This document shows positions 5,566 through 59,528 of a stretch of 64,000 nucleotides of DNA, piece after piece. Each line of letters begins with the position of its first letter. Position 1 is the first letter of the stretch. Source of the stretch: Halocafeteria seosinensis (Eukaryota). The notes beneath the pieces were generated by a model. That model was not told the DNA's origin and did no database searches. It was given only the letters and a program-made list of their open reading frames with translations. The stretch spans positions 1 to 64,000 of the forward strand of contig LVLI01000177.1 of NCBI GenBank assembly GCA_001687465.1. The letters are read 5' to 3'. A program made the translations under genes and the position numbers.

Positions 5566-8296
5566 TTAGTCTTCCAAGACTTTTGCATCCTCCTCTTCGT
5601 ACTGATACGATTCCTGCTGACTTCTTCGACTCTTTTTCCTTTCTTCTTGTTCAGCCTCTTTCTTCTTGTCCTCCTCCTTCGCTTGTTCAATCCTATTCCA
5701 ATCAATTTCTTTGTCAGCATATTGTCGAAACGATGGCAACATCTCCTGGCGCTTCGTTTGTTCCAAATGTCGTCGTCTGTATGCTATAACGGTATCTATA
5801 TGTGTTTTATATTTCTGGGAAAGTTCAAGGGCTCTGCAGATACAAAGTAATTTTGAAAAGCCACGAGTTCAACCAAAGTATGCACAACAATGGAGGGGCT
5901 TGGAACCTACCTTTCCCAGCGGAACAACTTAATGTTCATCTTAATCGCCCGATACAAGAGCGGGGGTTGAGCTTGTAACAAAATCTTCTCCCCTTCATCG
6001 ACTTCCCCTTTTAAGACAGATAATTCGGCAAGTCGGCCCTCACTAGACGGGATACTTTTTATTTTGGATATGTACTGAGCTTTGGCAACTTCTCGGAGAG
6101 ATGCAAGAGAAAGCTCTGCAGTCGCGAGCTGCTTTGAATTAAGTGCCATCCCTGCTAGACTTCCCCACAGGGGATCTTGCTTGAGAAACCGGCAAAGCCG
6201 TATTGCTGCTTCCCATTTGCCGGCAGATACGTAATTGTGCAATAAGAGTGGGCCAGTGGCCATCAAAGAGTGTACCAACGCTCCATCAGCCCGTCGAACG
6301 ACCAATCTAGTGCTTTGAAACTCATGGATATGTGGCCTCTTACCAAACTCCGGGGAAGGAGAGTATACTTTCACTGGTTCTAATAAGTCCGTATCCACAA
6401 AAGCGGCATGTGGATAATACCATGACACGGTCTGTCCGTCCATGAGAGCAGTCAAGATATCTGCTCTCTGATTCCATGCGACACTATCAACCATGCTCCC
6501 GAGCTTCACGGCATTTGGCTTCACTGCGCGTGTGACATAGAGATCGTCGTTGCTATCAACGATGGCAAGCAATCGTTCAGGTAAAGAGCTTCCACTTTGG
6601 GAAAGATAAAGTTGGGATACTTCGGAGCCGTGGTTGTATCCGTTCCCGATAGCCCTACCTGTTCGCACATCGAAAAGCCGAACCGCTGCATGATCACAGT
6701 TTAAATGCAATGACGTATGAAACGTGCATTATATACACGGCAAAAAGCTTTTTGACATACTCTTCGAGTCGCTGGTATCTAGCACAGCCACGCAATCCGA
6801 TGCCAGGGAGAGAATACTCTGATCAAGTCGCTCCACTTGCAAACCAGGGAATTTTATGGCATTTAAGGGACGTCCATCGTATGTATAAATTTGTACCCCC
6901 GTGGTTGTGTCCACCGTTAGGAAATGCTTTGCCGATTGGAGAATAGTAGAAACAGAGCCTTTGCAATCAAATATATGCGGCGTGTTCCAGTTATTTGTCT
7001 TGTACACGTAAATCTGCGATAGGGTTGCAACCACGAAATAGCCGAACGCCAAACTCATGTTGCATATACGATCACGAAAATCGAGGATTTCCGTGGAGTC
7101 CATGGAAAGATCGCGAACCCGAATGGTCGCTGGCCCAGTGATAGTACACTCCACATGTTCCCAGCTAGCGACCTGTCCAATGAGATACGCTAATACGAGG
7201 GAGTCATCAGCTCCTGCAGCAGCAATCTGCGTGCCATCCGGAGACCATTTGATGGAGTTGACGCTACCTGTTCGAGGACATTCGCGATGGTATGACCACT
7301 GCATAAACAAGAGACCCGAAATTAAAGAGAACACTCTACAAACAATTCAAAAAAGTAACGACGTACCCCAGTCTTGTCACAAAGCCGTAGCAGATTGTAC
7401 GATCCCACAGCAAAGACGGTCCCCGAAGGACTCCAGGCTACCGATGTAATAACGTGTTCCAAGGGATTACTACAAAAGAGCTGCCTTCCGAACGAATCCC
7501 AAACTCTGTATTTCCTATCTTCTCCTCCACTAACGATCAAATTGGTCACTTTATTCCAGCTCAGTGTCAATACAGCCCCCGCATGAGCTTCCCAGTTCAT
7601 CCCTTTCCTATCCGTTGTGGTGGAGCAAATCCGCAGCTCGTGGCCGCACGTGTATAAAACTTGATCATCATTCGGACTCCAACACGCCGCGTACACTGGC
7701 TTGGGGGCAGAGGCCAATAGAGACCTTAACATGCCATTTCGACTCCACACTTTGACGCTTCCATCCTCTCCTCCCGTGACGATGGCTGAGCCATCCGACG
7801 TGCAATCGACGTCAATGACCGCCACGCCATTGTTTGTCACTTGGACAGCTTTCTCCTCTCGCCCTTGTCGATTGAGAAAACGCAAATATCCATCCGTGCA
7901 GGCCACCACCACCAAGTCCCCGCCAGCAGCAGCCCCTGTCGGGGGTGCTTTCTCCCCTTTGGCCCTCTTTTTGGAGGTCGATGACGACGAAGAAGACGCC
8001 CCCGTGGCAACATTTCCTGTAGGACTGGCATTAGGGTTCTTTAAGATGGTCATACTAGTGACAGAGTACTTGAAGCGCTTGCTTAACGCTTCCATAAAGT
8101 CCCCTTCACTGCTCCATTTGAACAATCTACCATCGTCTCCCACAGAAATCAGCTCCTGATTGCGCGTCCATGCACATGCCGTCACAGCATCTTCATCTGC
8201 GTATACATACAGATGGTAGGGGGTGGAGCTGTATTTGGGTGTAGGGCTGGCAGACTTACGGGACGCTCCTCGTAATTCGGAGACATCAAAGCGCAT
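5566..8296 (-). CDS. IFT80: Intraflagellar transport protein 80 (WD40, multi-exon)
   Basis: Motifs TGGEDGSVKVWSRNGMLRS, SGGEDRKYRVWDSFGRQLF, LRLCDKTG/WSY, WNTPHIFD and WYYPHAAFVD, plus a last exon ALELSQKYKTHIDTVIAYR...EIDW. All match IFT80. Confidence 0.95.
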
Positions 8297-8690
8297 TTCA
8301 CCCGATTTTATCTTGACCACGAGATACGCACATATACATAAGAGTGTCTATAGTATAGTATATTACCATAAAACGAATTCTACAACTTCTCTTCGTTGTA
8401 GAATTTGAAGGAAACAATCGATTGACTGCACCACCACCCACTTAACGGCCACGCAGGAGATAGGTAATGCATTGAATTCACATCTGAGTGAAGACGAACT
8501 GCGATGAACTTTGAGAGGATTGTTTACATGTTGACAACGGGAAAACAAAAAAGAGAATTCTACGCACCTCATGGCACGATTCCTCCTTTTACATTCGTTG
8601 GAGGAAGGAATTGCAAAGTGTCTCTGGAAGAAGTTACAATAGTACAAGTACCATAACGTAGGTTCAAACACTGGGACGGCGGCGGATGCG

Positions 8691-17548: not shown

Positions 17549-20500
17549 ATGCCTGCAAAAGAGCAGCAACAGGAGGGGGAGAGGAAGCCTCCTGCTTCCA
17601 AAAGTCCAAGCGCAGCACAGGCTCAAAGTGTTGTTTCTTCCTCTACCACACGCGCTAGACAAGATGCACTAGGGGGACAAGTGTCATCCTCTTCGCTCTG
17701 GCCCTCTGCAGGCTCCCTGTGGGTGCCGGCATGGCAGGAGCCCCATGTGAATTTATTCAGCACGCTTCAAATTCATCGCCTGGCTCAAATCGTGGAGCGC
17801 CAGGAACGCTTACAAGGAGGAACTGGGGCTTCTACAGCCGATGACTCTTCCGATAAGCAGACGGCAGCTTCAGGAACCAAGAGCAGCAAAGAGGACCACG
17901 ATGCCGAAACGACGACGGATAAACATACAACAAGCGGGAGTTCATCGAAAATGAGCCAATCCATGAGTTCCCCTGAATGGGCTGCGAAACACGTTATGCG
18001 CCGTAAGGGCAATGTAAACCGCATTATGGTAAGGAACCTGGCATGTCTCCTTGCACAGAGGCAATGACCGGCTGTCTGTATCTCTGCTCCAGGACCATGC
18101 CATTGGGAAACTCATCTTCAAAGTGGTGGGACGAGTATCCACTTCCAACTATATCGAAATTCCTCGAGCTGTGTACGTACAACTATGTAACTTTTACCCT
18201 TCTCCTCCCGTCCTTTTCACAACTGCCCCATTTTCCGATGGTTTTGGCACAGGAAGGGAAAGAAAGCTGCCTCGCGAAAGACTCCCGTTACAGATATTAC
18301 GAATCTGGGACTGAAAGGGACGTTCGTCTACATTCAAGCTAGAGGAATGGCACGAAAAGCAAAGCCTCAAAGTAGTCAGAAGACTAAGAAAGGGTTTATG
18401 AATTTTTTGGACGGGGAAGAACGTAAAGCGTCGACAATGCTTCCTGCGAGTTTCTACATCGACGTTGTAACAACTTCGAACTACCTGTACCGGTTGTCAT
18501 TTAGCTCCTTTCACACGGAGTTCGGAATGCGCCTTGAAAAGATTATAGAAATACCGATAGAGTACGACATCAACGCATTTTGCCGTGCTCTCAGGTGCTG
18601 TCTTCATTAATTGTCTTGGAACGTGCTCATTTACATTTGCAGGTTGTCCACTACCTGGTGTACAATGGCTATCAGCATCCCATCTCTTCTTGCTGCAGCC
18701 ACTGGAGGAAAGGAGTCCATGAAAACGTTCAGATGCGTCAAATCTTTTAAGTTTAGCTGTAATATGAGTATTCGTAACGTTTGGACTTCTAATGAACTAT
18801 ATGATGGGCGGGTAAGTTGTGGTCTATGTTGACCTGGACAGCTATTCTCTTTTGTGAAACGCGTCTACTTCTTGTTCCACAGGATATTCCTAAGGACATG
18901 GCATTGCCTCTTCCTGATAACACCGATTACTTTGATATGTTCGAATGGTATTTTGCACCTGTGTGTCCTACACGGAAAGACGACAAAGCCAAAAAGAAAA
19001 GCAGCCGCCGGAAAGGACCGAAGCAGCTCCCCGGCTTAAAACTGTCTCCTGAGCAGCACCAATACGCCGTGGAAGAACTAGAGGAGGTCCTTGGTGCCCG
19101 GAAAGATTTGGGTGTACGGTTTGCAAAAAAATCGAAGAAACAGAAGGAAGACAAAAAAGCGAAGGAAAAGGAAACTGACGAGGAAGAAGAGGAAGAAGAC
19201 TCCTCCGAAGATGAATCTCTTACTAGTGAATCCATGCAGGAAATTGAATCCGATCGAGAGTCGGACCTCGGCAACTTAGAGGAAGAGATCGAAGAGTTGC
19301 AGAAGCAGGAGCATGTGGATTCCTCTGCAGACCACACTCAAGCGGAGCGAAAGGAGCAAGCGCAAACAACAACAAAAAAGAGTGGAGAAGAACTGAAGCA
19401 AGAGCTCACTGGCATATCTGACAGGCTTACCAAAGCTAAAGTATCGAGTTTGGCAAACATTGATAATTCGCTTTGCACGTATCCGGTCACAGAAGGTACA
19501 AAACTGCTTGACGATATGAGTATGCTCGGCTGCACCGGTTCCCTCCAAAATAGTATTCGGTGGACCGAAAGCGGAAAGGAATTACTATATGCAGGTGGTC
19601 CTACTCTAGTTTCCTTATCCGTCTCGAGTTATTTTGAATCTGCAGAGGACGGTGAAAGTGGGTCCAAAGGGAGGTACATGTTTGCGTCTTCCAACTCCAC
19701 GTCAATTGAGGGCCGTGGAGAGATAGATGGTTGCCGTCTTCAGAACGGCGATGAAAGCACAAATGGGAAGTATAAGAGCTTACCTCAAAAACATTTTACT
19801 GGGCATGCCGGACCGGTTGTAGGATTTCGTCTATCTCCAAGAGAGGAATTCCTGGTCACGGTCTGCCCCTTCTCCCACTATCAAGGATATTGTACCCGAG
19901 TACCAGAGTTACGAATATGGGACTACAAGAGCTGCCGGTTGATGGCGGTCCTCCGGGGGTTCCTCAATAGAGAAGACAGACTAGAGGCAAAGTTATTTCC
20001 TTGGAGGTCTGCTGGGGAATGGCAGCCGCTAGAACCAGAGCGCGACCAAGGCGAAACGCGGCCTGCTAAAGTGGGGGAGCAATGCCTAGACGTGACCCGC
20101 GATGGAAACTGTGTTGTTGTCAATGGGACTGACTGGAGAGGAAGGACTGTCATAACATTGCTGGACGTATCAGAGTTTTGTAAGAAGTATTTCAAAGATA
20201 GAACCACCAATATTAACCGAAGCGCAATCAGAATATCTGCAAGGCAAATGTCGGATTTTCCAATTTCTACGATGAAGTGCATGCCGGGAATGGGTGGGGA
20301 AATTGTCTCCGCTGGCAAGGAAAACGTGAAGATTTGGAGAAGAAAAGAGGAACATTTTTCGGGTGCACCTGTAGTACTCTCCCAATATGCTCGAGGATGC
20401 GAGTTTACCAGTATCGCATTCGAACCACCGGCACTTCGCTCCGTTTCAGATGACTCTTTTTACTCCAAACGTCAAGTTAGCGGGATTGATTCTGCGTCAG

Positions 20501-23500
20501 GTTCAAAACGAATATTTGTCGCATCCTCTCAAGGGTGTATTCTTCAAATCAATTACAATACTCGTGCGTTGGAGGCAGTGTTTCAACTGCACACCGGCCC
20601 TATCCACGGAATTGATGTGAACGAAGGATTTTTTGTTTCCTGTGGTGCGGATGGGTTTCTTCGCATGTGGCCTCATGATTTTGGTACGTTCTTTTTGGAG
20701 GCTCATCATGATTGTCCGGTGACATCTGCCTCCATTTCTCCTGACGGCTTGAAGATTGCCAGTGTTACCCTCTTGGGGAGTGTTGGGATCTTGGATATAT
20801 CGAGTCAAAGTTACTCGACTTTGCTACGCCCTCATGCAAATACAGTGCACAGTATTGCCACTAGGGATGCCGCTAGTGGAGTTGCGGACTTAGTAACAGC
20901 TTCGTATGACGGGAGTATTCGTGCATGGAATACTGAATCTTGGAGCCCGTTAACCGAATTCACCCTAAGGGACAACGACAATCAGTGCACCGCGCTAGCG
21001 TTTTTTCCCTCTTCTATAAAATTTTCAGAAATGTCTGACGCAGTCGTTGCTGGCTTCGAATCGGGGAAAATAAGGGTCCTGGATGTAACTACAGCCTCTG
21101 TTATGTACGAATTTCATCAGCACCAAGTGGCTGTAAGCAAGATACATTTCATCAATGGGGATTCAGGGCAAGAGGGAAAAGAGGATAAGGATGCGTTACA
21201 GGACGCTCAGCGTCTTCTTATTGTATCAATTGCCAAAGATTTCAGTCTATGCGTTTACGATATAGGCAGAAAATTTACCCCAATCCGAATGTTGGACTTA
21301 TCTGGACTATTCGCAATGCCAGCCGTAGGAGGATTGGGGGGATATAAGGCTAGTGTGTCATTCAGTAATCGGTTAGGGAAATGCGTCGTTTCTTGCTACG
21401 TGAACGAAGAAGAAGGAACTGTTGAAAATTGCGAGGGAGTGGACTTCTCCCCGGTGTTGTTGGACTCGGTGGAATTTTCGATATCGGGGAAACTGGAACT
21501 GCAAAATACTAGTGTTGGCCCGGCGAGTCGTCGAACCACACAGCAATGTTCCCATCAAACGGCGGCAATGTCCGCGTTATCGCACGGAGACAGGAGCAAC
21601 GGCTCTTCGCCTTCAAAGGTAAAGGATGGTGTGCATCGATACCCCACTATGGCTACCCGCGTTGCGTTTGGTCCCAAAACAGATGTAGTATATGGGGGAA
21701 TGAATGATGGACGTATCTTCAAATGGGATGTTCACACAGGGAAACTACTGCAGAGTATTCAAAATTTGGGACTAGCTCCGTCCCGACGACTGCATGACAT
21801 GGCGCTGCCACCTTTTGCTATCACAACGTTAGAGCCTAGCTCTGATGGGAAACTTCTACTGACCGCTGCTAAAGACGGCGCAATTAGTGTATGGAACGCT
21901 GCATTGATGGGGCCGACTCCTAAAGACGCGCTGTGTCAACGTTTTGAGCCTTGCGTTGGACGATTTGGTCCCGCATCCTGGTGTGCCGGAGGGAATTATG
22001 TCGTTGCTGCCCCAGACGTACTACAGTGTGGTATGGAATCGAAGGCCTTGCGGCTCTTTGATGTTGCTGCAGAACAAGGGGTGCTTTCCGCAGCTGCAAA
22101 GGGGTGGAGACGTAACAGAAATGTGGGAGGACTGTTTGCTTCGGGTGCTGTTTTACGTTGGCGTGTAAATAATGGTCAGGAGCTTTGGTCTGAGAAAGAG
22201 GAGCGGCCTGCCGAGTGCTCCCAACCTGCACCGGCAGACACTCCAGTAACAAGCAGTTTTGTCACATCGCAGCGGACGTTCACTGAATATAGAGAGGCGC
22301 GAACTACACCATTGAAAGAAGCTCAAAATCAGTCTTTTGACAGCCTTGGCACTGATATAGCACCAATAGCGGAACGGGAAGTGGATACTGAAGGGTCGGA
22401 GTTATACGAGCCCGTTGAGGAGGAGTGGCACCATGACAACGGCTACCAGCCTGGAGATACCTCTGAACCTCCGGAAAATGTGGGCAAGTGTGATGTGGAC
22501 TCAGTTGGAAGGCCATCGGAGAGTAGACCTATACCACCTCCATCCCCTATTCGACAAGAGGCAGCCCACGAACGCTCCAGCTCGTCGTTTCAAGAACCAG
22601 ACCGATTCAGACAGAAGGCCGATGCACTGCAGGTTGCATCTTCTCTATTAGAATACCGGAATATGGGGTTTGATACCAGTGGCAAAGTCCCTGCTGTGTT
22701 TCTTGCCCATGCTAACGAAGTTGCTTTGCCTAAACGGAGTCAAGTTTTGGTCCAACCGTTGGATAGCCTCCAGCAGACCGTTATTCAGCTGAGTGAAGCG
22801 CATGAAAACGCCGTCGAAATAACAGCGTTGGCTTCCGATGACATTGGTTTCTGGTTGGCAGTCGGTCTGCGCCACCACTCCAAGAGAGGTAGCACAGGCG
22901 AAATCCAGCTGTGGTGTGCGGAGGACATGGACGACACTGGATCCGTGCACCAGTGGAAATGCTGCTACGCATTGGTTTGTCGCCATACAGTGCCGGTGGT
23001 TTGTACCGTAGATTCGCAATTTTCCTCGGTGGCTGCCCTGGTCGAAGCGGGTTCGGATGACGTATCTGGTGGCAAGTCGTTTAGCGTATCTGTTTGGAAC
23101 ATAGAAGGGATGAAGACTGGTGGTCAATCTGATTCATGTAGTCTCATAGACAAGCCAGACACTTCTTCGCTGATCGCTGAAAACTGCAGCTCTCCTGCTA
23201 AGAAACCTCCGGAATTTATATTCAAGTGGGACGCTAGAATCGGAGCAGTTGGGCTGGCTCTTATCAACATGGAGCCGTACGTAATCTTACCCAGGGGCAG
23301 GAACCGGTTTGGTTGCAAGAAGTTAGCAAGTCTATCAACAGAAGAGGATACTCACAGGTTTCAAAGGGTAAGTCATGCGGATCTGCGCATTACGCAAAAC
23401 GGTGGCGAGGAAGGTGTGCTGCTTGCTTTGGCTAAATCAAACCAGTCCTGCTTCCTTGGTTGGCTATCGTGGTCCCCCAATGACTTCAACACTCTTACAT

Positions 23501-25218
23501 GGAAGGTAGTGGCTGAACTTCTCGTAGCGAAAGCTCCTAAGAAAATCAACCGTGTGGCGTCTCTAAATCTGTTGGAAAACAGTATAGTTTGCGTGTTTCG
23601 AGGCGGAAACGTGAATGTTTGGGACTATAGTCTCTCTCCAGAAAACGTGGCCGCTGCTACCAAGGGAAAGGGTGCATCGCGCAAGGCAAGAGCTCCGCAA
23701 AGCCAGCCAAAGCAGCAGGGGAAAAGCGTCCCACGGAAGCACCTGAACCTAGACAGCAACGTCCCACTGCAGAAAGGAGTTGTCCAAAAACATTCAACTC
23801 AGCCATTTGGCGATCTGTCCGGAGCCACACTACCAATGGTAAACGTGCAAAATTCGGTTTCCCTCGTTCCATCGCAACGGCAAGTTCGAGTGAAGGGGCA
23901 TCCGAACTCCGTCCTTATGAGATGCTGCGATGGTTACGATACTCAGTTGCTCTTCGTCAGCGAGCTTGGCTCATTATGGAGGCTACAATGCACATTCGTG
24001 GATCCGACAAGGTTCGGGGCCACAGAGGAAACGTGCTACTGGGAAGAAGCTGTTCTTCCTCAACCGCTGGAGGTGCTGGGTGTTCAATTTTCGGACGCCT
24101 CGTCAAGTCTAGTCTCTCTTTCTTTCCTACGGCGCGATACCCTCTTGTTAATGACCCATAGCTGCGTCAAGGATGAGGCGTTTTCAAGATTTCCCGATTT
24201 ACAAGCAATTACTGGTTCAACTATCCTCGAATGTGCAGATGTTAGATGTAACTCCCGAGTATATATGGACTTATCCGGAGGGGTGGATGATGGACAGGAA
24301 GTCCTGTGTGTGTCCGTACAATCAAAATTGATGATTTTTACGGTGTCTACCCTAACTCTCATCGATGAATTCGTATTCGCCGAAGACTGCGGACTGATTA
24401 GCTCCTTGTGCGTATATCCGCTGAAAACTGCGCATGTCGCGCTGGTGGGGATGGACCGTGGGGATGTCTACGCCGTTGTTTACGATAACACGGGCGTGAA
24501 GTCCTGGTGGGAGTTTTCGGCCCTGATTGATCCTCAATGTCACGCTTTTTCAAGGCATGGTTCCAATACGATTCTTCAAATCCGATCCTACTCCTCTGGT
24601 AACTCTACTTGTGTTGCCATAGCATCCGGAAATGGCTTCTTGTCGATCTGGGACGTGTCACCAACTCGGAAGGCGAGTAACACCTCACAACAGCCAATGA
24701 AAATGAGGCTGCTGGACACAATGGCCCTTTCTGCTGACCTCCGTGATAGCGCTGAAAATACTCCGCTCCAGGAGAGGGTGGACATAGCATTCAATTCCGC
24801 CGATACAATGTCAATGATTTGTACCCGCCGAACGTCCGACGAAGAACCAGCCTATTTCTTAGTTAGTTACTCTCTTGAGGACAAGAGAATAACAAATGTT
24901 TCGGATCCACTGCCCTTTACCCCCGTGAGGCTAGTAGCTGCCACGTCGGACGAGAGACGACAATGGACGGGAATCTCCTTCCACCGATCAGATGATGAGG
25001 GATCGCAAGTGGCCTGGCTCCGGAGCGGATCGTCAAGTAATTTTGGTCTCGTGAAATTCGTCACTCCGGCCTTTTCCGTAGGTACTCAGTTAAGGGCCGA
25101 GTGTCCTCTAGGGGTTTTTCCATCCATTGCTGCGGCTTCCAGCGAAGGCTTGACCATATTTAGTCATTCTCCGTCTGATGGAAATGATTCGCTCAATTAT
25201 AGTAACTGTGAGACTTGA
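17549..25218 (+). CDS. WDR90: WD repeat protein 90 / POC16 (N-terminal CFAP20/DUF667-like domain plus WD40 propellers; several short 5' introns, large last exon)
   Basis: The N-terminal exons give WQEPHVNLF, GRVSTSNYIEIPR, LGLKGTFVY, RLSFSSF, KSFKFSCNMSIRNVWTS and IPKDMALPLP. Later motifs include LHTGPIHGIDVNEGFFVSCGADGFLRMWPHDF and YSTLLRPH. Introns include 18029-18092 and 18173-18252. Confidence 0.88.
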
Positions 25219-26160
25219 TAAATGAATTCAGTTGCCCTTGTAGTGCGTTTATGCCTCCCATTCAAAACTCCTTAGTATTTCTGTCTGGAATTCATAAGCA
25301 TCTCAATTAGAGTTTCGTAAGTCGCAGGAACAATGAAAAATAACAAACAGATGTGATATACACGCACGGAGGTAGGTAGGTGTCCACGAAAGGCGATTCG
25401 TTTGAGATGTAGTGCAGTTGTATCGTAATTGGAAAAAGGGAACTAAAAAGCGTGCAACTTTCGGACACCTTACGATTCGCCCGGATCCCGCACAGTGGAA
25501 TTCGGAGAGAATGAAGAGATGGTGGTAGGCGGTTGTTCGTAGGTCACACAATGGGGTCTTATCTGTACCGCAATACAAGTACAGTACTTGTGCTATTGGC
25601 ACTCTAGCGTAGTAGGGAGACAGACGAGCTTGACGAAGGGGCCACGGGAATTCAGCACAGGAGCGCATTGGAACTGTACCTGTGTAAAGTGACGAAAAAA
25701 ATCCTGCAATTCCATGAATCTCAAGCAATAGGATATTCCGATTCTAAGCATTCAATATCACACGTACCACTGAACGTGGAATATACAATCGCCAAAAGCC
25801 AAAGTCTCAGATCAGATGGTACACTGTAGTACACTGTGTATATGTTGTCCGGCGCCTCCGGTATAATACATCGAACATCATGGAACGGTCTCTTTCTAAA
25901 CAGCTACATGAACGTCATGTCTCCCTGTGCCCGTCATCCCTCGCTATGTGATAAAAAAAAAAAATTATTTTTACCGTAGATTGTGGCGATGTTCTCCTGG
26001 ATTCCTCCCTGAGGCTCCTCTTCCTGATGTCATTGAAGTCATCTGATCTCACTGGGTTCCTTGCTGCTTTGACACGGCGATACCTTACTCATCACATCAG
26101 GGAGGATTGTTTTGTCTCGTGGTGTGCATCCATCCGACGACATTCTTCTAGTCCGGGACA

Positions 26161-29121
26161 ATGCCTGTGGCGTATTCGGCGCACGCCGCCAGTGTGGCGT
26201 CAGCTTCGCAGCGCTTTCTGACTCAAGGAAGCCAGGAGGAAGGTGTATACTGTCACAGAGACAAATTGCGCGAGCATGTCGCTTCGCAGTATGCCGGAGA
26301 CTCCCAAGCGCGTCTGTTGGAGCACCAGGAGAGCGTGCAGGACCGACAGAAGCAACTGGAACGCGAAAAACAAGTCTACGACGCGGCGATTGAGATGTCG
26401 AAATCGAGCGCCGTCAAAGAACTCGTACAAGAATTGCATCAGAACACATTGCGCTGTTTCATCCTCACGGACCCCACGTTGGAAGGACTGCCCATCGTGT
26501 ATGCGTCCCCTGGGTTCCTGGAAATGACGGCGTACAGCCAAGAGGAAGTGCTGGGCAGGAATTGTCGGTTCCTCCAAGGCGCTGCCACGGATTTCTTGAC
26601 GGCACGGCGCATAGGGGACGCCATTGGGAACAAAAAGGAGTACACGGTGCAGATTCTCAATTACAAGAAAGATGGAACCCCCTTCTGGAATCTCCTCCAT
26701 TTGGCTCCCGTCACCCGACCTGACAACGAGGAGAACGAAAACGTAGAGGAGCGCTACTTCTATGTGGGAATTCAAACCAATGTCACTGTACCCAAGAAGT
26801 TGCAACCCAAGAAATCTGATCGAGAGGAAGACATGCAGAAAACTGGATCTTCTTATGTTGCCAAACACGGATTTACGGCTTTTCTGCCAGCGAGCTTACA
26901 TTCCACCATTTCAGATGATACTTCCAAAGTTGGATCCTCTTTGTCAAAGTTTTCAACGTTTCGCCAAGGATTAAAAAATGGAGTCACGTTTGAGGCAACC
27001 AATCTGTCCTACAGTATTCCCGGACCGAAGAAAGAAGACAAAGTTGCGAAAATCCTAGACGATATTTCCGTGTACGCAAAGCCAGGGGAAATGCTGGCAA
27101 TCATGGGTCCCAGCGGTTCTGGGAAGACAACTTTGCTCAACGCATTAGCAGGAAGGGCTAGCAATAGTTTGACCCTGGAGGATCCAAGCTTTGATCATAG
27201 TAAAGCAACATCGAAGCCTGTTCTTAGTGGGTCCATAACGCTGAATGGGAAGCCAAGGAAGAAGGATGACAAGCGGCGACTTGCATATGTTATGCAAGAC
27301 GATGTACTGTTTGACAACCTTACAGTTGAAGAAACGTTGTACTACAGCGCAAAGCTGAAAATGCCTGAGTCAACTCCTGAAGAGACCATCCAACAAAGAG
27401 TGGAAGAGGTCATATCTCTGTTAAAGCTCGACAAATGTAGACAAACTATCATCGGCTCCCCTATGCAACGAGGCGTCTCTGGAGGGGAGCGCAAACGGGT
27501 GAATATCGGGTAAGTTCCTGTGGTATCATGCAGACACCCCCCTTATTGATACGTGACGTTGTTGCTCTTTACTATGTCAAAAATCAGAAATGAGATTGTA
27601 ACAGACCCCTCTGTCCTGTTACTGGATGAACCGACCAGTGGTTTGGATTCCTCTAATGCTCTGCGACTGTTATCGAGCCTCGCGATGTTGGCTGCTGCGG
27701 GAAGGACAGTGATGACGACCATTCATCAACCATCGACTCAGATATTCAACTGTTTTGACAAACTATTGCTTTTGGGGGAAGGTAACGTTCTTTACTTTGG
27801 AACCGCTTCCGATGCGCTACACTATTTCGCGTCTCCCCCGCTGAAGCAAGTTTGCCCACCTCATTGGAACCCAGCGGATTTCCTACTTGGTAAGCCCTGA
27901 TTGGCGCTATCTAGGTATCTGTACCGTCTGTGTACTTAATTCGACCGTCTTACGTTCGCAGAGGTCTCCTCATATGGCAAAATCGTTGCTGATGCGGCTG
28001 AGCAATGGACAAAGCAGCAGCAACAGCTGGACTATGTTGCTAAGCATTGTGGTCATGACGTCTTCGATCTTCCTGGTGATGAAGAAATGAACGGAAGCAC
28101 AGATGACAATGCAGGAGAAACAGGTGAAGTCGTATTGAAGATCCAAAACCATGGAGGGGATAAAGGCAAAGAAAATGCAGAGGCATCGAATGAGAAATGG
28201 CCTACTTCATTTTTAACACAACTAAGTGTGCTAATGCGAAGGTCATTCAAACAAGGACGGGGTAGCACAATGACTAGCTACTACCTCGGGCAGACAATCG
28301 CGATCACCCTTGTAACATCTCTACTCTGGTGGCAAATAGATGATAATGCTTCTACGATTAGTGATCGTGAGGGTTTCGTTTTCTTCGCTAGTGTCTATTG
28401 GGGCTTCAACCCTTTATTCAATGCTCTCACTACATTCCCAGCCGAACGATCCGTGCTCACTCGCGAACGCGCCGGAGGAATGTATCGTCTTTCGGCGTAT
28501 TTCCTTGCCAAGAGTTGTGCGGATATACCTCTGGTCTTTACCTATCCGACTATATTTGCAGTTGTTGCATACTGGGCGGTAGGTCTTCGTGCGGAAGCCG
28601 GGAGCTTTTTCACTTTTCTTTTTGGTTTGTACGTGAATGGTTTGGCCGCACAAGCACTTGGTTTGGCTGTTTCCAGCTGGGTCTTGGATTTTCGTAAGAG
28701 TTTAGTTGTGGTACGTATTCGTCCGCATTTACACAGCATGACTTCGACTCTTTAAAGTATATGTTTTTTCCTTATTTGTGGCGTTCAGGCTGTCGTTCTC
28801 ATGCTATCCTTCATGTTAGCGGGCGGATTCTACATCCAGGACATACCTGTATTTATCAATTGGTATGCCGCTTTGGGTTTTGTATCCTATACATACCCGC
28901 TGATGATTCAAAACGAATTCTCGGACAGAGAATTTGATTGCGTTCAAGGCGAAAATGTTGCTTTTACCGGGTGCCCCGTTACGGGCGAAGACGTTGTTGA
29001 CAGATTAAACCCGTTCCTCAGAGAAATTGGTCCGAATTTCGGTATTTTGTTCATCATGGCTTTCGTGTTCCGCTTCATTGCATACTGGGGTTTACGGTAT
29101 CGGACAAAGTCCACTGCATGA
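26161..29121 (+). CDS. LOV-domain / ABCG half-transporter fusion (coiled coil-LOV-NBD-TMD, about 910 aa, 4 exons)
   Basis: LOV: FILTDP...[30 protein letters not shown]...[18 protein letters not shown]...YVGIQ. ABCG: Walker [11 protein letters not shown]-loop YVMQDD, signature VSGGERKRV, Walker [23 protein letters not shown], and a TMD with [16 protein letters not shown]. Introns 27510-27587, 27890-27961 and 28711-28788 all keep frame. Confidence 0.93.
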
Positions 29122-29188
29122 GTAGCGGTTTGCTACGAAAACGTAAACATTTATGTGATATACAAAATAAACAAAGTATGCTTTTATC

Positions 29189-32100
29189 TCAAAGCAGTTG
29201 CTCCACCACGTTTCGACACCGGGAGCACAAATGATCGCCATCCGAGCTGACGCTAAGCTGTATCTGCCAGCAGCGTCGACATTTTTGTCCTTGGGCATGC
29301 CCAAGAATAACATTTATATTGTCTTCAGTCGATTCCTCGCTTGTAATGATACTGGAAGAGTTAAACGTTGCGGTCCCATTATACACAGCTTGCGACGTAC
29401 CCATGACTTCAGCCAATTCCAGGCTTTCTGCAATTGACGTGAGGGGCTGCGTTGAATCTCCATGTCCCTCTAACGTGTCGATGTACACGCATGCATCCAA
29501 AGGTGAGCCAATTAGTTTCCGAGTACGAGCTTCCTCGAGCAAACGATGGACCAGGTTTCTAGCTCTCAAAACCCTGTCCCATTGAGTAGCTATGGATTCG
29601 CTGTGCCATGTGCTTGGGATTGCTCTTCGTGTCAAGTGGAAAACACTCATGCTAGTACAGGGATTCAAAGTCCAGTCTTTCCCTTCGTTTTCATCTCCCT
29701 CTTTTGTTATCATAGCAACCGAATGCTGGAAAATATCTTCGGCAGTGTAGCATGCTATGGGCGCTATTCCGTTTACAAGAGTCACTAGTGATTCCCATAA
29801 TATTGCCTGTGTTTGTTCTCGAAGAGGATCAGATGGATGTTGGCAGTACAGCCGGTCTTTGACAAATTCCAAGTAACGCGACGACAGGTCGTTTGTAACG
29901 AAATTTGTCACGGCGGCAATAACTCTTGCAAAATTGAAATTAGAATATGCAGCGGTAATTTCGGTCTCCAGTGCAGCGAGTCTGTTGAGAGCAAACTGTT
30001 GGACAGGAGTGCAGCGGTTTATGTCAAGCACTGGTGAATCTCGAGCATGCTGAGTCCATGCACTCTGTATTCGGGCTTTACTTTCAATGACGCGTTCCAT
30101 GTTCAATGCATCAAAAAACTTGGGCATATACCCGTTTAAATTGGAAAGTAAGAATTTAGCCGTGTTTCGGACTCTTCGGAGGCTTTCCGCAGATTTCGCC
30201 ACCGCATCCGGAGATAAAACAATATCCCTAGAGTAGTCAGTTGATGCTACCCACCACCTACCCACATCTACGCCATAGGGAACATTGAAAAGGGCTTTCT
30301 TATTCTTGCCCTTGATCCCTTTTTTCTGCTTTGGTGCTCCGTCGATAATATCGCTGGGGGCAACGACATTGCCGATGCTCTTACTCATTTTTAAGGCTTG
30401 GGGATCTAGTACAAACCCATGCGTTACAATATTAGAAAACGGTACGCCAAACTTTGCGGCAATGGCTATTAAAAGACTTGACTGGAACCATCCTCGGTGT
30501 TGATCGCTTCCCTCCACAACGACATCTGACCGTTTGCCTTTCGCGAGCAGCGACTCACCGCTTCCCGACCGGTCCCACACAGATGCCCATGAACTCCCAC
30601 TATCAAACCAAACGTCGAATGTGTCCATTCCTCGACGGTACAGTTTAGCATTTTCCTCGGTGCGCATAGAACGAGGCAATAACTCACTCATAGGAGCCTG
30701 CCACCAGTAGTCAGTGCCATTCTTCGAAATGAGACTTTTAATGTTTTCGATACTTTCTTCCGTTAGCAGCGGTTCATCGGTGTCTCGATGGTACAAAACA
30801 GGAATAGGTACTCCCCATGGACGTTGCCGCGAAATGCACCACTCCGTTCGACTTTGCAGCATAGCCTGTAATCGGTTAATTCCGCTCTCCGGTACGAGTC
30901 GAATATTGCCCACTGCGAGTAAGCTCTGTGCAATTGCATCTTTCACATTTATAAACCACTGTGAAGTGGCACGGATGATTACGGGCTGCTTGCTTCTCCA
31001 ATCGTAGGGGTACCTGTGCGCATACTCAGCGGAGTGCAAAAGATAACCTTCTTTCTTCAAAAGTTCCATTACTGCATTATTTCCTTCATTCAACACCTCT
31101 TTACCCTCAAGTTCACGTACGTCGGACGAAAATTGTCCTCTATCGTTAACCGGACAAATAACTGGCATTTCTGGAGTCACAGAATGCTCGCTGTTCAATT
31201 TCTCGATGGCGTACCAGTCATCAACACCATGCCCTGGTGCTGTGTGAACAAGTCCCGTTCCATTGTCCATTGTTACGTAATCAGCGGGGACTATTACACT
31301 AGTCCTTTCGCATCCTACATTGCAACCAGATAATGGATGAAGGCATTGTAAACCTGCAAGGCGCCTACCCTCGAGAGTGCATATGTCCTCAGCAAAACAT
31401 TCCATGCTAATCCCCGCAGATACTTGGTGCACGAAATGATCCTTCAATTCACAAGCCACTAAGAAAAAACTAGGGAATGCGAAACCTTGTTCACTTCGTA
31501 CAGCTATCACACTGTACTCTTGATCGGGCGCGATCGCTATAGCCACGTTCGCAGGAATAGTCCATGGAGTCGTGGTCCAGATTGCTGCGGCAACCGGAAA
31601 GTCGGAGCAGTCGACGTCGATTTCAATGTTTTTACAGTATTCCTCCACCGAGTTAGCAATTTTAGATAACGTATCCGTAGGGTCCCAAGGTGTCTGGCTG
31701 TATGTTAACTCCTCCTTGGCTGCTAGAGGAAAAGAGGCATATATTTGTTGAGAAATATGGTTATCCTGTATAGTAAAACATTACAGCATAATCCGTAGAA
31801 ACAACTATACATCTCTGTACAGAGCGCTACGCCGTACTTTATACTCCAATTCTGCCTCAGCTAAAGCAGTTTGGGTCGAAGGGGACCAGTATACGGGTTT
31901 GACACCTCGAAACACGACTCCATTTTTCCAAAGTTGCTGGAATACCTCTGCATAACAATATAAAGAAGCAAAATCCAGACATGCAGAGCCCAACCACGCA
32001 AAACTTTGCTAACCTAGCTCATTAGACTCGTAAGAAGCATCCATGGTTCGATATGTGTGCTCGGTCGAGGACCAATCCGCTAGAACACCCCAGCGCTTGA

Positions 32101-52434: not shown

Positions 52435-55400
52435 TTAGCCGATACTATCCACCAAGCCAGCAGACCGACTCCCAGCGGCTGCCTGCAGTGCTATTTTAGA
52501 CTCGACCTCGTACAACAACAAATCGAGTAGTTTGTCTTCAATCGCCTTTTCGATGGTTTGCGGAATATCATGTCTATAAGCCTTCAACGAAGAGTCCCAC
52601 CAATTTTGGCTTCTAGGCAACAATTTTGTGCTGTCTTCTTTTTTTTCATTCCGTAGTTCGTAATCTCCTTCAGCATTTTGCGTTTCATCGCATTCCGGAG
52701 AACTAGTAGGTTTAATTTTCTGTCGCTTTTCTCTGATCTGTTGCATTAGGGGCTGTATGTACGTTTCAAATGCTTCTTGTAATGCTTCTTTTGTTACCTT
52801 AGACATGGTATGTAACGCTTTATCAATGCTTAGCTGCAAGAAGTCAGACTTGTCTGTGACGGTATCTTCAAAATCTGGGTCATCATCCTCTGCGGAACCC
52901 CATTGATTTTGGAATGCCTCCGTTGCTGCTGCCAGACGCGTCGACACCGAGTCTATGCCAGCTTTCAATCCTACCCATTGGCCAACAGAACTACTTTGAG
53001 CCTCCTCATTCCAAGACGACAGTTTTCCCTTAATAGTATTGGTGAAATTTTGCGCTGCTGCCTTGCTCTCATCAACATATTCATTCGCAGTCGCTTGAGC
53101 TCGCTCGGCGTTGTCGATGTAGTGGCTGTTGGACATGTGCTCTAAAGGCGTCGTAGCAACCTTCAATGCCTGATGTCCACGCAATGTGTTGACCAGGTTG
53201 GCGCAACCAGTATAGTCGGATTGAGTTGGAGATTCAAGTTGATAGCGCTGACGCAAAGTATCGGCCACCTTCTGTACTTCAGTCATTAGGGTACCTCTAA
53301 CGCTCAACCTGATAGACCTGTGTATATAGCGCAACCAATCGCGCTCTTCCGAAGTCAAAACTACAGGAGCAGAGTTGGCAGAATTGCTATTGCTCTCCGG
53401 GTTCCGAAATGCTTTTGATGCCGCCCGTAGAGAATGGACTAAGCGTTTCTTCAAAGTCTGCAGCACGGGAAACGATTGCTCCTTGGATTTTACCACCGTT
53501 TTAGCGTCCGCTGCGGTTTGTGTGGTAGGCGTTGTTGCCTCAGCTGTTTGCTCGTCCGACTGTGCTTTCACGGCTATGCTATGCTCTCCAGTTAAACTAG
53601 TTCTTTTGACAGCAGATTCAAAATGTGCTTCACCAGATGTTATCGTTGGTAAAGTTGTCTGAGAAAGAGTACCCGGTTGGGCATTTGATTGAGCTTCACT
53701 GCGCCTAATAGCTGATCCAGCTGCTTTGTATATATATATGGTAGTTTTTTCCGCAGCAGACTCAGATTGTGCTTCACCAGCTATTATCGTCGGTAGATTT
53801 GACTTGGATAAAATAGCCGTTTGGGCATCTGAGTTCGTTGTGCTGCTCATTGCAGCTGATTCAGTTGCTTCGCATGCAGCAGTTCCTTGGACAGCAGACT
53901 CAGACTGTGCTTCATCAGATTGTATTGTCGGTGTGGTTGCCACACACACACATATGTGAGCCTCGGATAAAGTAGCCGTTTGGTCATCTAGTTGCATTTC
54001 GCCGCTCCTGATAGCCAATTCAGCTGCTTCGTTTGCAGTAGTTCTGTCGACAGTAGACTCAGACTGCGCTTCACTAGAAGCAGTTTGGGTATCTGTTAGA
54101 GTCGATTCAGTTGCTTTGTAGGCACTCCTTTTCTGTGCAACAGGGGCAACTGATACGTCTTTAGGTTGTCCTGTTGTTGAGGTCGCTGTCGTCCGCGGCG
54201 GAAGCTCACTTGCGCTATTTTTATTTATCGGTGGGAGAACTGGTGTCATAGCACTTTGCACTTCTGCAGATGCTGTTGATGCTTTAGACACGACTCGCTG
54301 TTTCATATGTGCATTTACCGATGCTTCCGTAATGCCTTGCTGTGCTGCTTTCTCCTCGGTTGCGTCAAAAATTACTCTCTTATATTTGTCCTCCCTTGCT
54401 TCGTCTTTTTGTTTTTGTAAACTCTCCCTTGCTTCTTCCTTCATCTCTTCCACTCCCGTGGCGTGCTCTTCGTACAGTGACAGAGCCTCTTCCTTTACTT
54501 CGTTGTTGGTGTCATCCACGTAGTCTTTTAGGTCACTTTGCTGATACATGTCCCTCGCAATGTCTTTGAACATTTCCTTCCACGAGGAATCGTTTTCGTC
54601 CTGTTGCCCACTATCGTCTTCTAGTAGAGACGGTCTTGTTTGTCTGACCATTTCTTCGGCGGTAACATCCCCCCTTATCACTGGTAGCATGAGTGACTCG
54701 ATTTTATCACCAATAGAGGACTGCAAGGTTAAAGGGATATGATACTCCCCTTGTAAGGAGACCAATGGAACTGTAAACGATACTTCCTGCCACTGACGTG
54801 CGTCGGTTATGGGAGCACAAGTAAATTCTCCCTCTCTTAGAATTCCATCTATAACAGGCAACACTTTCTGGCTAATATCGGTCTCCAAGGTATCTTCCAG
54901 CGTGACAATAACCCGTTCCTCCATGTACAGTAGCCAATCTGATAGACTATATTGTGCCTCATCAGATTTCTGCTCCCAGTGAGCTTTGCACTGTTTAACT
55001 ACAGGTAGCTTGAACACACACCCCTTTAGTGAATCAATGATTGAACTCTTTTCAGAGTCCCCATCAGCTTGTGCTTCTTTGCCCGTTCTTCGTGAAGAAG
55101 CGGAAGCACTTCTCTCCTCTGATCTTCCATTTTCGCCTTCATCATGGTGTACGGTCACATATGCTTCGTCATCACTCAGCTCTTCTTCACGTTCGGCTTC
55201 TTGCAGTGGTTGCTCTCCAGGTTCGTTTAACGTCGAAATGACCCCCGCGGTTGATGAGACGGTAGTGGAGGCAATGGTCGTTCCTAAAGTTGTCGACTTT
55301 GTCTCTCCGTTTGTGGAGTCTGTCGTAGTTCTAGATACGCTTGTAGAGGAGTCCAAAGCAGTAGAGGGGGGTTGTTTCTTTTCATCAACGGCGCTGACAA

Positions 55401-58400
55401 ACTTTTTCTCCATCTTCGACTTCAGACGATCCCGTACCTCTGTCTCCCGGCGCCTCCCTTCGGAAGTTTCGCGTATCTTCTTCAGGTGCTGGCGGGAAGG
55501 GAGTGGGAAGGACGCCTTCAAAAATATATCATCAAATGGTGTCAACTTCTTCGCATGTCTTCCTCCACACTTCAAACGACGAAGCAAAGCTTCACCCCGA
55601 GTTTCTTTCTTTGGGGCAGTCTTCGCTGCTGTAAATTCGGAATCAGGGTTTGTTGGAATACCAACCAAGTCTTCTACATTCATTGCACCGGTAATAACAG
55701 GGCGAATTTTTCTCGCGATGGCTTCTTCTACAACGTGTCGTATACATGCTTCAATTGCCTTCTCTGCATTTGTGAGAATTGTTGGTATGTACTCACCAAT
55801 TTGCTGTGCTTCGAAATGTCGCTTCAAAATCCTCCTGACTGAAGATGGTTGAGACTTTGTACCCGAAGTAGCGGTGTCCTTATTGTCCTTGTTGGATTCT
55901 TTCTCGCTGGATTCCCTACTTCGAAAGAATGGCTCTTTAAGAGTCTGTTTGTTCGACTCTCCTCTCTGATCAAACGACGGAACCACGCGGTAGATCATGT
56001 ACGAATGCATAACTTCTTTCACAGTAGCATCCACAGAAATCCTCAAACGCTCGATCCACATAGCAATCTCTCTGGACCGGTAAGAACCGTATTTATCTTC
56101 GTCAGTTTTGTCTTCCGCAGTACTGTGACCAACTATCCAATCTGGTAAGCATTTTGTAATCACACGGAATACGTTTTCCTTGATGGAACGTTTACAGCGG
56201 GTATAGAATGGCTGAGAGGAAAGTGCCGTTTGTGCCGATGACATTTTGTTTCTACTCTCACTTCCTTTACCCTTACTAGTGTCTGTAGTCCCTTCCTGAG
56301 TTTTACTGGAAACTGCCGTCGAGGTGCCCTGATTCGTACTGCACTCTTTGCTCCGACTTTCATCAAAAGACGGTGTCGTCTTGTTCGGCAGAGCATCCAG
56401 TTGTCCCATTAGGGTTATTGAATTGTCTGAGGCCGCAAGGGAGGCTTCTTGCATTAGTGCATGTTTCGTCTCAGGGACATCAACTAATTTATCACTCCCA
56501 TCCCACACACCCTTAATACATTCTTCTCCCTCTCGAAGTGTTGCTAAGTTTGCTTTACCCGTAATCTGTGCCTGAGCGTGCGTCCGAAACGAATGCAGAG
56601 CGGTGTTTGTGAAAGCATCATCCTTCTGCTCAAAGTGCTGGATCAGCGCCTCGCTACTAATTTCTCCGCGCAGTGCAGGTACCAACGTGTTGTATAATTC
56701 GTAGGTAACTGCTTCTCGAGAAGCGACCATCGTGCTGGACGATGCTTCTTCCACCATTAGAGGCATAATGTCATTGACGCTATCAGTATTGACGTATCGC
56801 TTTATTTGTCGCTGCATGTCCCGGCATCGTTTCTCCGGGTTCTCAAGTTGGGCCCGCATATTCATATCAACACTAGAAAAGCGGCTGCGCATGTTCGCAA
56901 TCCTGGAAGATACGAAACCTAAAGTCACCACGACAGACACTGCGACTAGAGCTGTAAGCAACATTATTGCTTCGGGTCCGCGCAATCCACCAAAATCAAG
57001 GGCACTGCTGGTAACCGAGTTCTCCACGTTTTGTTTTTCGCTGTCAGGAACAGAGTAGTCAGAAATCGTAGGAGAGCCGCTGGACAAGGTAGTCGCCGAT
57101 ACTGAAGGGGTTGTTGTTCTTGAAGAGGTACTAGTTGCCGTAGCAGTGGAAAGTGTTGCAGTTGCACTCGACGAGAAAGTTGCGGACACCGAAGATGTCG
57201 CGGTTTCGGAAGGTGTGCTAGTTGTCGTACCACTGGAAGGCGTTGAAGATCCACTGGGAGATATCATTGTCGATGCCGATGGTGTTCCCGTTCTTGAAGC
57301 GGTGCTAGTTGTCACAGCGCTAGAGGACGTTGAAGGAGAGCTGCTGGACGAGGTAGTCGCCGATACTGAAGGGGTTGTTGTTCTTGAAGAGGTGCTAGTT
57401 GCCATAGCAGCGGAAGGTGTTGCAGTTGCACTCGACGAGATAGTTGCGGACACCGAAGATATCGCGGTTTCGGAAGGTGTGCTAGTTGTCGTACCACTGG
57501 AAGGCGTTGAAGATTCACTGGGAGATATTACTATCGATGCCGATGGTGTTCCCGTTCTTGAAGCGGTGCTAGTTGCCACAGCGCTGGAGGACGTTGAAGG
57601 AGAGCTGCTGGACGAGGTAGTCGCCGATACTGAAGGCGTTGTTGTTCTTGAAGCGGTGCTAGTTGTCACAGCGCTAGAGGACGTTGAAGGAGAGCTGCTG
57701 GACGAGGTAGTCGCCGATACTGAAGGGGTTGTTGTTCTTGAAGCGGTGCTAGTTGTCACAGCGCTAGAGGACGTTGAAGGAGAGCTGCTGGACGAGGTAG
57801 TCGCCGATACTGAAGGGGTTGTTGTTCTTGAAGAGGTACTAGTTGCCATAGCAGCGGAGGGTGTTGCAGTTGCACTCGACGAGATAGTTGCGGACACCGA
57901 AGATGTCGCGGTTTCGGAAGGTGTCGGGGTAGTAAGTGGCGAAGACGTAATCGTTGTAGAGGGCGAAACTGTGGATGACGGGCTAGGACTTGTAGAAGCC
58001 GTGTGGCTAGGCGTAACGCTTGGCAAAGGAGGAGGTGGACCAGCTCCCTCTACGCAGTCAATTTGTGACGTGTCGACCCTTGCCAGAATAGGCAAACAGT
58101 TTGGGACTTGCCACCATATTGTATCAAGCCATTCAGAATTATACAGTGTCCCAGAAATAGACAAGAGGTCATTAGAGTTATCATTGTTGACTGTAATGCG
58201 CCCCGCGTTGTCCCCAGCAATACCTGCCCCACCGGTGGAATAAACTGAGAAGTGAGCCTCTATATTGTTGGAAAGAAAGTGGATCGAGCCAAACAAACCT
58301 CCACCATCCGCGTTAACAATATTACCAGACGCATACGTGTTCTGCAGCACAACGTTGCCCTGGTTGAGTCCTGCATCTTCACCCGTGATTCCCCCGGCAT

Positions 58401-59400: not shown

Positions 59401-59528
59401 ATCGGATCAGCTAATGGGGCTTGTAGTATCGGAATAAGTAAACACAATCACTGTGGCGCAACTCTACCAGGTCTTAGACAGACTGAGAGTCTCCCCTCGA
59501 CGACCTCGTGTACTCCGGGGCGGGGACC

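Follow-up and report, generated by a model that had tools for sequence, protein, structure and literature searches.

The window analyzed here, 64,000 nucleotides of contig LVLI01000177.1 (positions 1 to 64,000), comes from Halocafeteria seosinensis, a heterotrophic halophilic stramenopile. It carries on its plus strand a gene in which a LOV photosensor domain is fused to a half-size ABCG transporter. The gene model and the features referred to throughout are the following.

26161-29121 (+), LOV-ABCG half-transporter gene: 4 exons and 3 introns, encoding a 910-aa protein with zero internal stops
26161..27509 (+), exon 1: start codon, N-terminal helices, LOV domain, linker, and first half of the nucleotide-binding domain (NBD)
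26299..26442 (+), long helix (residues 47-80), a possible coiled coil, followed by an A'alpha-like helix (residues 83-94), as predicted by AlphaFold2
26455..26787 (+), LOV domain: PAS_9 at residues 101-209, E 2e-16 (Pfam), above the cut-off and within exon 1
26848..26970 (+), Ser/Thr-rich linker segment, residues 230-270, conserved in the ortholog (35/41 identical in P0242)
27106..27129 (+), Walker A GPSGSGKT, residues 316-323 (motif read)
27295 (+), Q-loop Gln379 (motif read)
27475..27489 (+), ABC signature VSGGE, residues 439-443 (motif read)
27510..27587 (+), intron 1: 78 nt, GT-AG
27588..27889 (+), exon 2: Walker B, H-loop, and NPADF dimer motif
27628 (+), Walker B catalytic Glu464, in exon 2
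27724 (+), H-loop His496, in exon 2
27868-27882 (+), NPADF dimer motif (NPXDF type), in exon 2
27890..27961 (+), intron 2: 72 nt, GT-AG
27962..28710 (+), exon 3: variable cytosolic linker and first part of the ABCG membrane domain
28711..28788 (+), intron 3: 78 nt, GT-AG
28789..29121 (+), exon 4: last membrane helices, GGFY gate (Phe814, Tyr815), two-Cys extracellular loop, and stop codon

The frame from 26152 to 27513 is free of stops and runs through the LOV domain into the ABC ATPase domain, of which it covers the first half, bearing out an earlier note on this DNA that had placed the LOV domain, Walker A (27106), and the signature motif in a single exon. An in-frame stop lies just upstream of the start codon at 26161, and 18 of the 23 N-terminal residues are common to a metagenomic ortholog, P0242.

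The fusion is transcribed as one unit

The gene model agrees at 908 of 910 residues with the transcriptome-derived EukProt protein P0001 (GECG01000057.1). The three introns were skipped exactly by contigs in all four sequencing runs examined (at most two samples, one study); in three of the runs a single contig extended from the 5′ UTR across the LOV and ATPase domains to the end of exon 3, and in the fourth the spliced contig reached 28205. The evidence for transcription consists of these spliced contigs, the runs themselves lacking an RNA label on record. Since the LOV and ATPase domains are joined in one piece in the spliced contigs of all four runs, misassembly is unlikely, and the single transcript on which the earlier note had advised a check is supported.

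An assembly or annotation artifact would have to explain not only the single open frame in the DNA and the spliced contigs across the junction but also the independent metagenomic ortholog, whose junction and intron position are identical, and the presence of the LOV-ABCG design in other genomes. Even though the runs, the transcriptome protein, and the window possibly derive from the same culture, and were counted as one study, we give this explanation almost no credence. The LOV-ABCG fusion is real, transcribed, and conserved.

Eleven coding variants were detected in the runs, none of them within the LOV domain, and the motif GRNCRFLQG occurs only once when all six frames of the window are translated. 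Upstream of the start codon (25835-26086), the run contigs differ from the window by many substitutions and small indels, compared to few in the coding part, a divergence that probably represents a second allele. Short contigs retaining intron 3 (28689-28812) were present in all four runs and in two allelic forms; read-through of this intron ends the protein at 28755, ahead of the last membrane helices.

GC content was 0.44 to 0.51 throughout the window, the published value for Halocafeteria being 46.8% (bioRxiv 10.64898/2026.06.25.734631), and this uniform composition across the window ruled out a foreign island. A functional linkage with the neighboring genes was likewise discarded, as these are housekeeping in nature (IFT80, a WDR90-like WD40 protein, isoleucyl-tRNA synthetase, Nse4, and PRP8). 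IFT80, at about 5900-8350, and the WD40 gene (WDR90/POC16-like, 2137 codons, 18805-25218, plus strand) together indicate a flagellated host. Immediately downstream, the isoleucyl-tRNA synthetase-like gene on the minus strand is convergent with the LOV-ABCG gene, with fewer than 70 bases between the two stop codons (29121-29189), a gap that is crossed by run contigs. Farther along, at 52435-59406 on the minus strand, a 2323-codon open frame gave no Pfam match at E 1e-5.

A canonical LOV domain precedes the transporter

Examination of the LOV domain (PAS_9, E 2e-16) confirmed the coordinates and residues given in the earlier note, i.e., Cys135 (codon 26563), the Asn pair, and Gln205. The GRNCRFLQG motif spans residues 132-140 and includes the adduct residue, Cys135, while the flavin-ring and signaling residues are Gln139, Asn167 (26659), Asn177 (26689), and Gln205 (26773). 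The equivalents of oat LOV2 N449, C450, R451, Q454, N482, N492, and Q513 are all kept (numbered by way of the 2v0u alignment), the phosphate-binding R451 corresponding to Arg136. The position of phosphate-binding R467 is occupied by Gly152, with Arg149 and Arg150 nearby. Among 248 motifs of the fetched proteins this position is Arg in 234 and Gly in 6, one phototropin-type LOV1 included, and the replacement of the usual Arg could, judging from the sequence, weaken FMN binding. Another Cys, Cys99, occupies the N414 position both here and in the P0242 ortholog. The V416 position is Ile, a residue that, judging from LOV2 mutants, may slow dark recovery.

The closest solved LOV relative is oat phototropin LOV2 (2v0u, E 4e-31), and the AlphaFold2 model shows a PAS fold at residues 100-208, with the PAS strand-helix pattern. 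The helices ahead of the domain were predicted with pLDDT values of about 74-93 from residue 51; their heptad pattern is modest at most, and residues 63-98 share 50-57% identity with the ortholog. The first 23 residues (26161-26229) are 78% identical to the ortholog with no predicted fold and are followed by a segment of 23% identity; on sequence grounds they are possibly a targeting or regulatory peptide.

The transporter part is an intact half-size ABCG

Behind the sensor, the protein has the half-size ABCG order of one NBD followed by one ABC2-type membrane domain. The ABC_tran match covers residues 299-449 in exon 1 (Pfam, E 1.5e-21) and that to ABC2_membrane has an E value of 4e-32 (Pfam). 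The ATPase motifs are all intact, namely, Walker A, Q-loop, signature, Walker B Glu, and H-loop, plus NPXDF; Walker B, the H-loop, and the ABCG-type membrane domain are supplied by the later exons, as anticipated in the earlier note. Alignment to AtABCG25 places the cavity residues Gln661, Phe692, Phe699 (28405), and Phe703 in exon 3. The AlphaFold2 monomer model, built on a 99-row alignment (mean pLDDT 83, pTM 0.72), has the ABCG fold, with AtABCG25 as the best match in the fold comparison (E 7e-41). An insertion of about 18 residues past Walker A (336-354; 27166-27222) is also found in P0242, is longer in the related protein P0245, and is absent from the other fusions.

The sensor is conserved together with the catalytic core

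The two records of the metagenomic ortholog, P0242 and P0387, lie on one 3533-base ENA contig; the ORF breaks at the residue that matches the position of intron 1. Conservation was measured as protein identity to this one ortholog (not as dN/dS). Identity reached 75/88 (85%) in the LOV core and 16/19 in its last strand, 35/41 (85%) in linker segment 230-270, 35/38, 80/96, and 93/101 (83-92%) in the ATPase domain, and 149/171 in the membrane domain, versus 9/39, 2/11, and 2/13 (15-23%), and also 24/77, in flanking segments, the 2/13 stretch being directly before linker segment 230-270. By this measure, conservation of the sensor and of part of the linker is on a par with that of the catalytic core. 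The strong conservation of the LOV core and linker segment improves the odds of light gating, i.e., that LOV-ABCG is a homodimeric exporter whose ATP-driven cycle would come under direct blue-light control by way of the LOV domain and linker, a reading to which we assign somewhat better than an even chance.

The same figures bear on the notion that the LOV domain is an ancestral passenger heading for loss, with a structural role at most and a constitutive transporter behind it. Such a passenger would be in keeping with the series of canonical, degenerate, and absent sensors across the subfamily and with the lack of a LOV in the nearest tree relative, P0245, though an upstream exon may be missing there. 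However, identity to the ortholog is 85% for the LOV core compared to 15-23% for the adjacent loops, and none of the 11 coding variants falls within the LOV domain, making a mere passenger very unlikely.

The linker comprises about 65 residues, with 18 Ser/Thr and 11 Lys/Arg per 68 residues, and is mostly disordered in the monomer model (pLDDT below 50 at 208-257). No conservation was recognizable in the linkers of the distant fusions; segment 230-270 is a candidate coupling element. A long, disordered linker of this composition could also serve a different output, in which the LOV domain is a working photoreceptor yet light controls the location, turnover, phosphorylation, or partner protein of the transporter rather than its pump cycle, by exposing either the conserved N terminus or the linker, rich in Ser/Thr and Lys. 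BcLOV4, where a polybasic helix behind the LOV domain is exposed for membrane binding (PMC6099885), provides a precedent, and the 78% conservation of the first 23 residues without a predicted fold points in the same direction. Against this, the best amphipathic 11-mer of the linker was matched by 394 of 1000 shuffles, which gives no support to an amphipathic membrane-binding helix in the linker, and neither a partner nor a targeting signal was identified. On balance, we find an indirect control of this kind unlikely.

LOV/PAS-ABCG fusions are present in several eukaryotic groups

Homolog, representative, and cluster searches returned at least eight distinct LOV/PAS-ABCG genes from several eukaryotic groups, a census that is a lower bound as the homolog lists comprise the top 120-150 matches. 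Four of the eight have a canonical LOV: the Halocafeteria gene, P0242, Cyanophora paradoxa P0043, and Mesostigma viride P0230 (P0230/P0240), with the Cyanophora and Mesostigma domains at the same position in the protein. P0389 is partly degenerate, the Cys being kept and the Gln replaced by Thr. The adduct Cys is absent from the remaining three, Chlorokybus P0270, Ancoracysta P0249, and Balamuthia P0137, and light sensing is therefore dispensable in part of the family.

These three relatives keep a PAS domain above the Pfam cut-off, which suggests a light-independent use. Conceivably, then, the flavin-binding domain mainly senses redox, oxygen, temperature, or another small ligand, with light being secondary; the presence of Cys99 at the N414 position in both the Halocafeteria protein and its ortholog, and a host that is probably a nonphotosynthetic flagellate, are compatible with such a role. 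All adduct-forming residues are nevertheless kept in four of the eight fusions, two algae among them, and aureochrome-type LOV proteins are also encoded by Halocafeteria (PMC13737086). We judge a primarily light-independent sensor decidedly unlikely.

Further searches brought no additional case. With a profile of the eight domains, no further PAS was found among 249 N-termini of more than 60 residues (from 335 ABC proteins fetched), and a profile of the eight fusions retrieved no new one among the best 120 of 7994 candidates, a list crowded by full-size fungal ABCGs. JGI metagenome contigs yielded nine loci, none with LOV and ABC together, and matches in the ESM Atlas were confined to generic ABCG clusters (0.85 or below), with no usable one for residues 45-340. 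Other LOV architectures came to light in these data: P0247 (4197 aa) and P0259 (3055 aa) have ten tandem LOV-like repeats each, and EukProt P0005 combines a bHLH domain with two LOV domains downstream of it.

Glantz et al. (PNAS, 2016) are said to have cataloged LOV effector architectures, and the LOV-ABCG design may be included there. In line with the earlier note, which knew of no characterized LOV-ABCG fusion, we found in the literature searched no study of any LOV/PAS-ABCG fusion and no ABC transporter characterized as having its own photosensor. The architecture is not unique, however: at least eight such genes exist, and the text of a preprint that covers 13 algal architectures mentions a "LOV-ABC transporter" a single time, without study and specifying neither the protein nor the ABC class (bioRxiv 10.1101/2025.06.20.660589). 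No ABC entry was found in the available part of a 2026 LOV survey (PMC13737086), nor a mention of a LOV domain or ABC in the Halocafeteria papers searched.

The fusions belong to a single ABCG subfamily

Separate phylogenies, as advocated in the earlier note, were built for the ABC part and the LOV domain. The ABC part was analyzed by FastTree with 112 rows (126 minus 23 near-duplicates plus 9 halves of full-size proteins) and by IQ-TREE with 45 chosen rows, P0242 being excluded as partial. Within this sampling, in which rows were picked by likeness to the query, the outgroup was small, and one ABCG subfamily was covered, all seven treed fusions fell inside one ABCG subfamily (38 of the 45 rows, 100/100), which also has red algal, cnidarian, amoebozoan, and land-plant members. 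The Mesostigma and Chlorokybus fusions were part of a green-lineage branch with Marchantia, Magnolia ABCG21, and Vitis ABCG22 (100/100), and the Balamuthia fusion grouped with Pellita. The fusions form no clade excluding PAS-less members (AU p 3e-6), and the fusion state changes six times on the tree, at least four of these changes being forced by supported branches. P0245, the nearest relative in the tree, has no visible LOV; it is a metagenomic gene call from which an upstream exon is possibly missing. A quick-search tree of 62 LOV domains (117 columns; aureochrome, fungal, and named bacterial LOV not included) grouped P0001, P0242, and P0389 (97), gave no resolution beyond, and did not discriminate between a single fusion and several.

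As far as the sequences go, the ABC tree fits either a single old fusion followed by many losses or repeated fusion to members of one subfamily. The progression from canonical to degenerate to absent favors the former. As the sensor is present in the early-branching streptophyte algae Mesostigma (intact) and Chlorokybus (degenerate), the data also suggest a light-sensing ancestor or early relative for the plant ABCG clade exporting abscisic acid (ABA), cytokinin, and steryl glucosides. More tentatively, LOV-ABCG may have arisen early in eukaryotes, with the photosensor kept in Halocafeteria, the glaucophyte, and Mesostigma and lost toward the land-plant hormone/lipid exporters ABCG9/14/21/22/25/26. 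The fusions would then represent a class of ABC exporters, ancient and pan-eukaryotic, that are gated by light directly, expelling, in a phagotroph, photosensitizing prey pigments when light makes them dangerous. We regard this broader scenario as possible and, on balance, doubtful.

A model for light gating

Half-size ABCGs function as dimers (PMC10581904). If the exporter is gated directly by blue light, two halves would pair through their membrane domains and NPADF motifs, as known for the family, placing two LOV domains on the cytosolic face. From what is known of LOV domains, blue light would drive formation of the Cys135-flavin adduct and a flip of Gln205; the change would then travel from the LOV sheet to the flanking helices and linker segment 230-270. 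In the dark, these helices and the linker would restrain the ATPase domains, and light would release the restraint, the light-on direction being borrowed from phototropin. Light control of dimerization, suggested in the earlier note, appears to be the least likely option, as ABCG2 halves remain joined via the NPXDF interface (PMC7756502) and the motif is present here. Counting against light gating are the absence of the Cys from three of the eight fusions and the loss of the Gln from one, the predominance of members without a PAS domain in the subfamily, Gly152 in place of the usual phosphate-binding Arg, and a linker that is disordered in the model and unconserved beyond the close ortholog.

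The transported molecule is probably small and hydrophobic or aromatic, accommodated between two Phe699 rings. By analogy with ABCG2, which exports pheophorbide a and protects mice from light-induced porphyria (PMC7756502), one may guess at photosensitizing or photo-oxidized compounds, e.g., phototoxic tetrapyrroles.

Should light indeed gate the pump, LOV-ABCG would be a single-chain, ATP-driven, light-switched exporter, hence a new LOV output and a natural template for optogenetic efflux. The Halocafeteria copy, being complete and transcribed and having a canonical LOV, is a good candidate for testing. The family also links a likely nonphotosynthetic flagellate with blue-light physiology.

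Comparison with known systems

By both sequence (E 1e-101) and fold, the closest solved transporter relative is AtABCG25 (PDB 8i38 and others), with the same NBD-membrane domain order. The AtABCG9/14/21/22/25/26 clade belongs to the same ABCG subfamily as the Halocafeteria protein, but the land-plant members examined have no sensor domain. An ABCG25-type ABA export was rejected on two counts: the positions of the ABA-binding residues I445, V449, T552, and V559 of ABCG25 (PMC10581904) are Val695, Phe699, Val802, and Met809, and the query falls outside the green-lineage branch, the ABA exporters forming an angiosperm ABCG25 clade (PMC10811370). Substrate switching is frequent between close plant ABCG paralogues, according to the same source (PMC10811370).

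Human ABCG2 has a similar ABCG fold (E 1e-77) at about 29% identity and differs in having no sensor domain. Mapped via the ABCG25 alignment, Phe699 corresponds to ABCG2 F439, a residue conserved across ABCGs (PMC11957596), and Met809 corresponds to M549; they are found in 82 and 66, respectively, of 99 subfamily rows. The ABCG2 selector pair T435/N436 (PMC11957596) is Val/Tyr in the Halocafeteria protein. Since Phe699 and Met809 are general in the subfamily and the T435/N436 pair is lacking, no cargo was assigned from these positions.

The sensor resembles the LOV domains of phototropin and aureochrome in canonical sequence and fold and in having an A'alpha-like helix, the matches to phototropin LOV2 (111 bits) ranking above those to aureochrome (89 bits). 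It differs from both in having a membrane ATPase pump as effector, no predicted J-alpha helix right behind the core, and Gly at the Arg467 position. Identity as a phototropin, which has two LOV domains and a Ser/Thr kinase, was dismissed, as there is a single LOV and no kinase here; so was that as an aureochrome, with an N-terminal bZIP and a C-terminal LOV, as no bZIP match was found and the LOV lies ahead of an ABC transporter.

The nearest counterparts are the uncharacterized LOV/PAS-ABCG proteins, alike in domain order and ABCG subfamily and, except for the close ortholog, 33-44% identical to the Halocafeteria protein. The Halocafeteria LOV-ABCG is a member of this small uncharacterized group spread across eukaryotes, a new pairing of two known families rather than a one-off.
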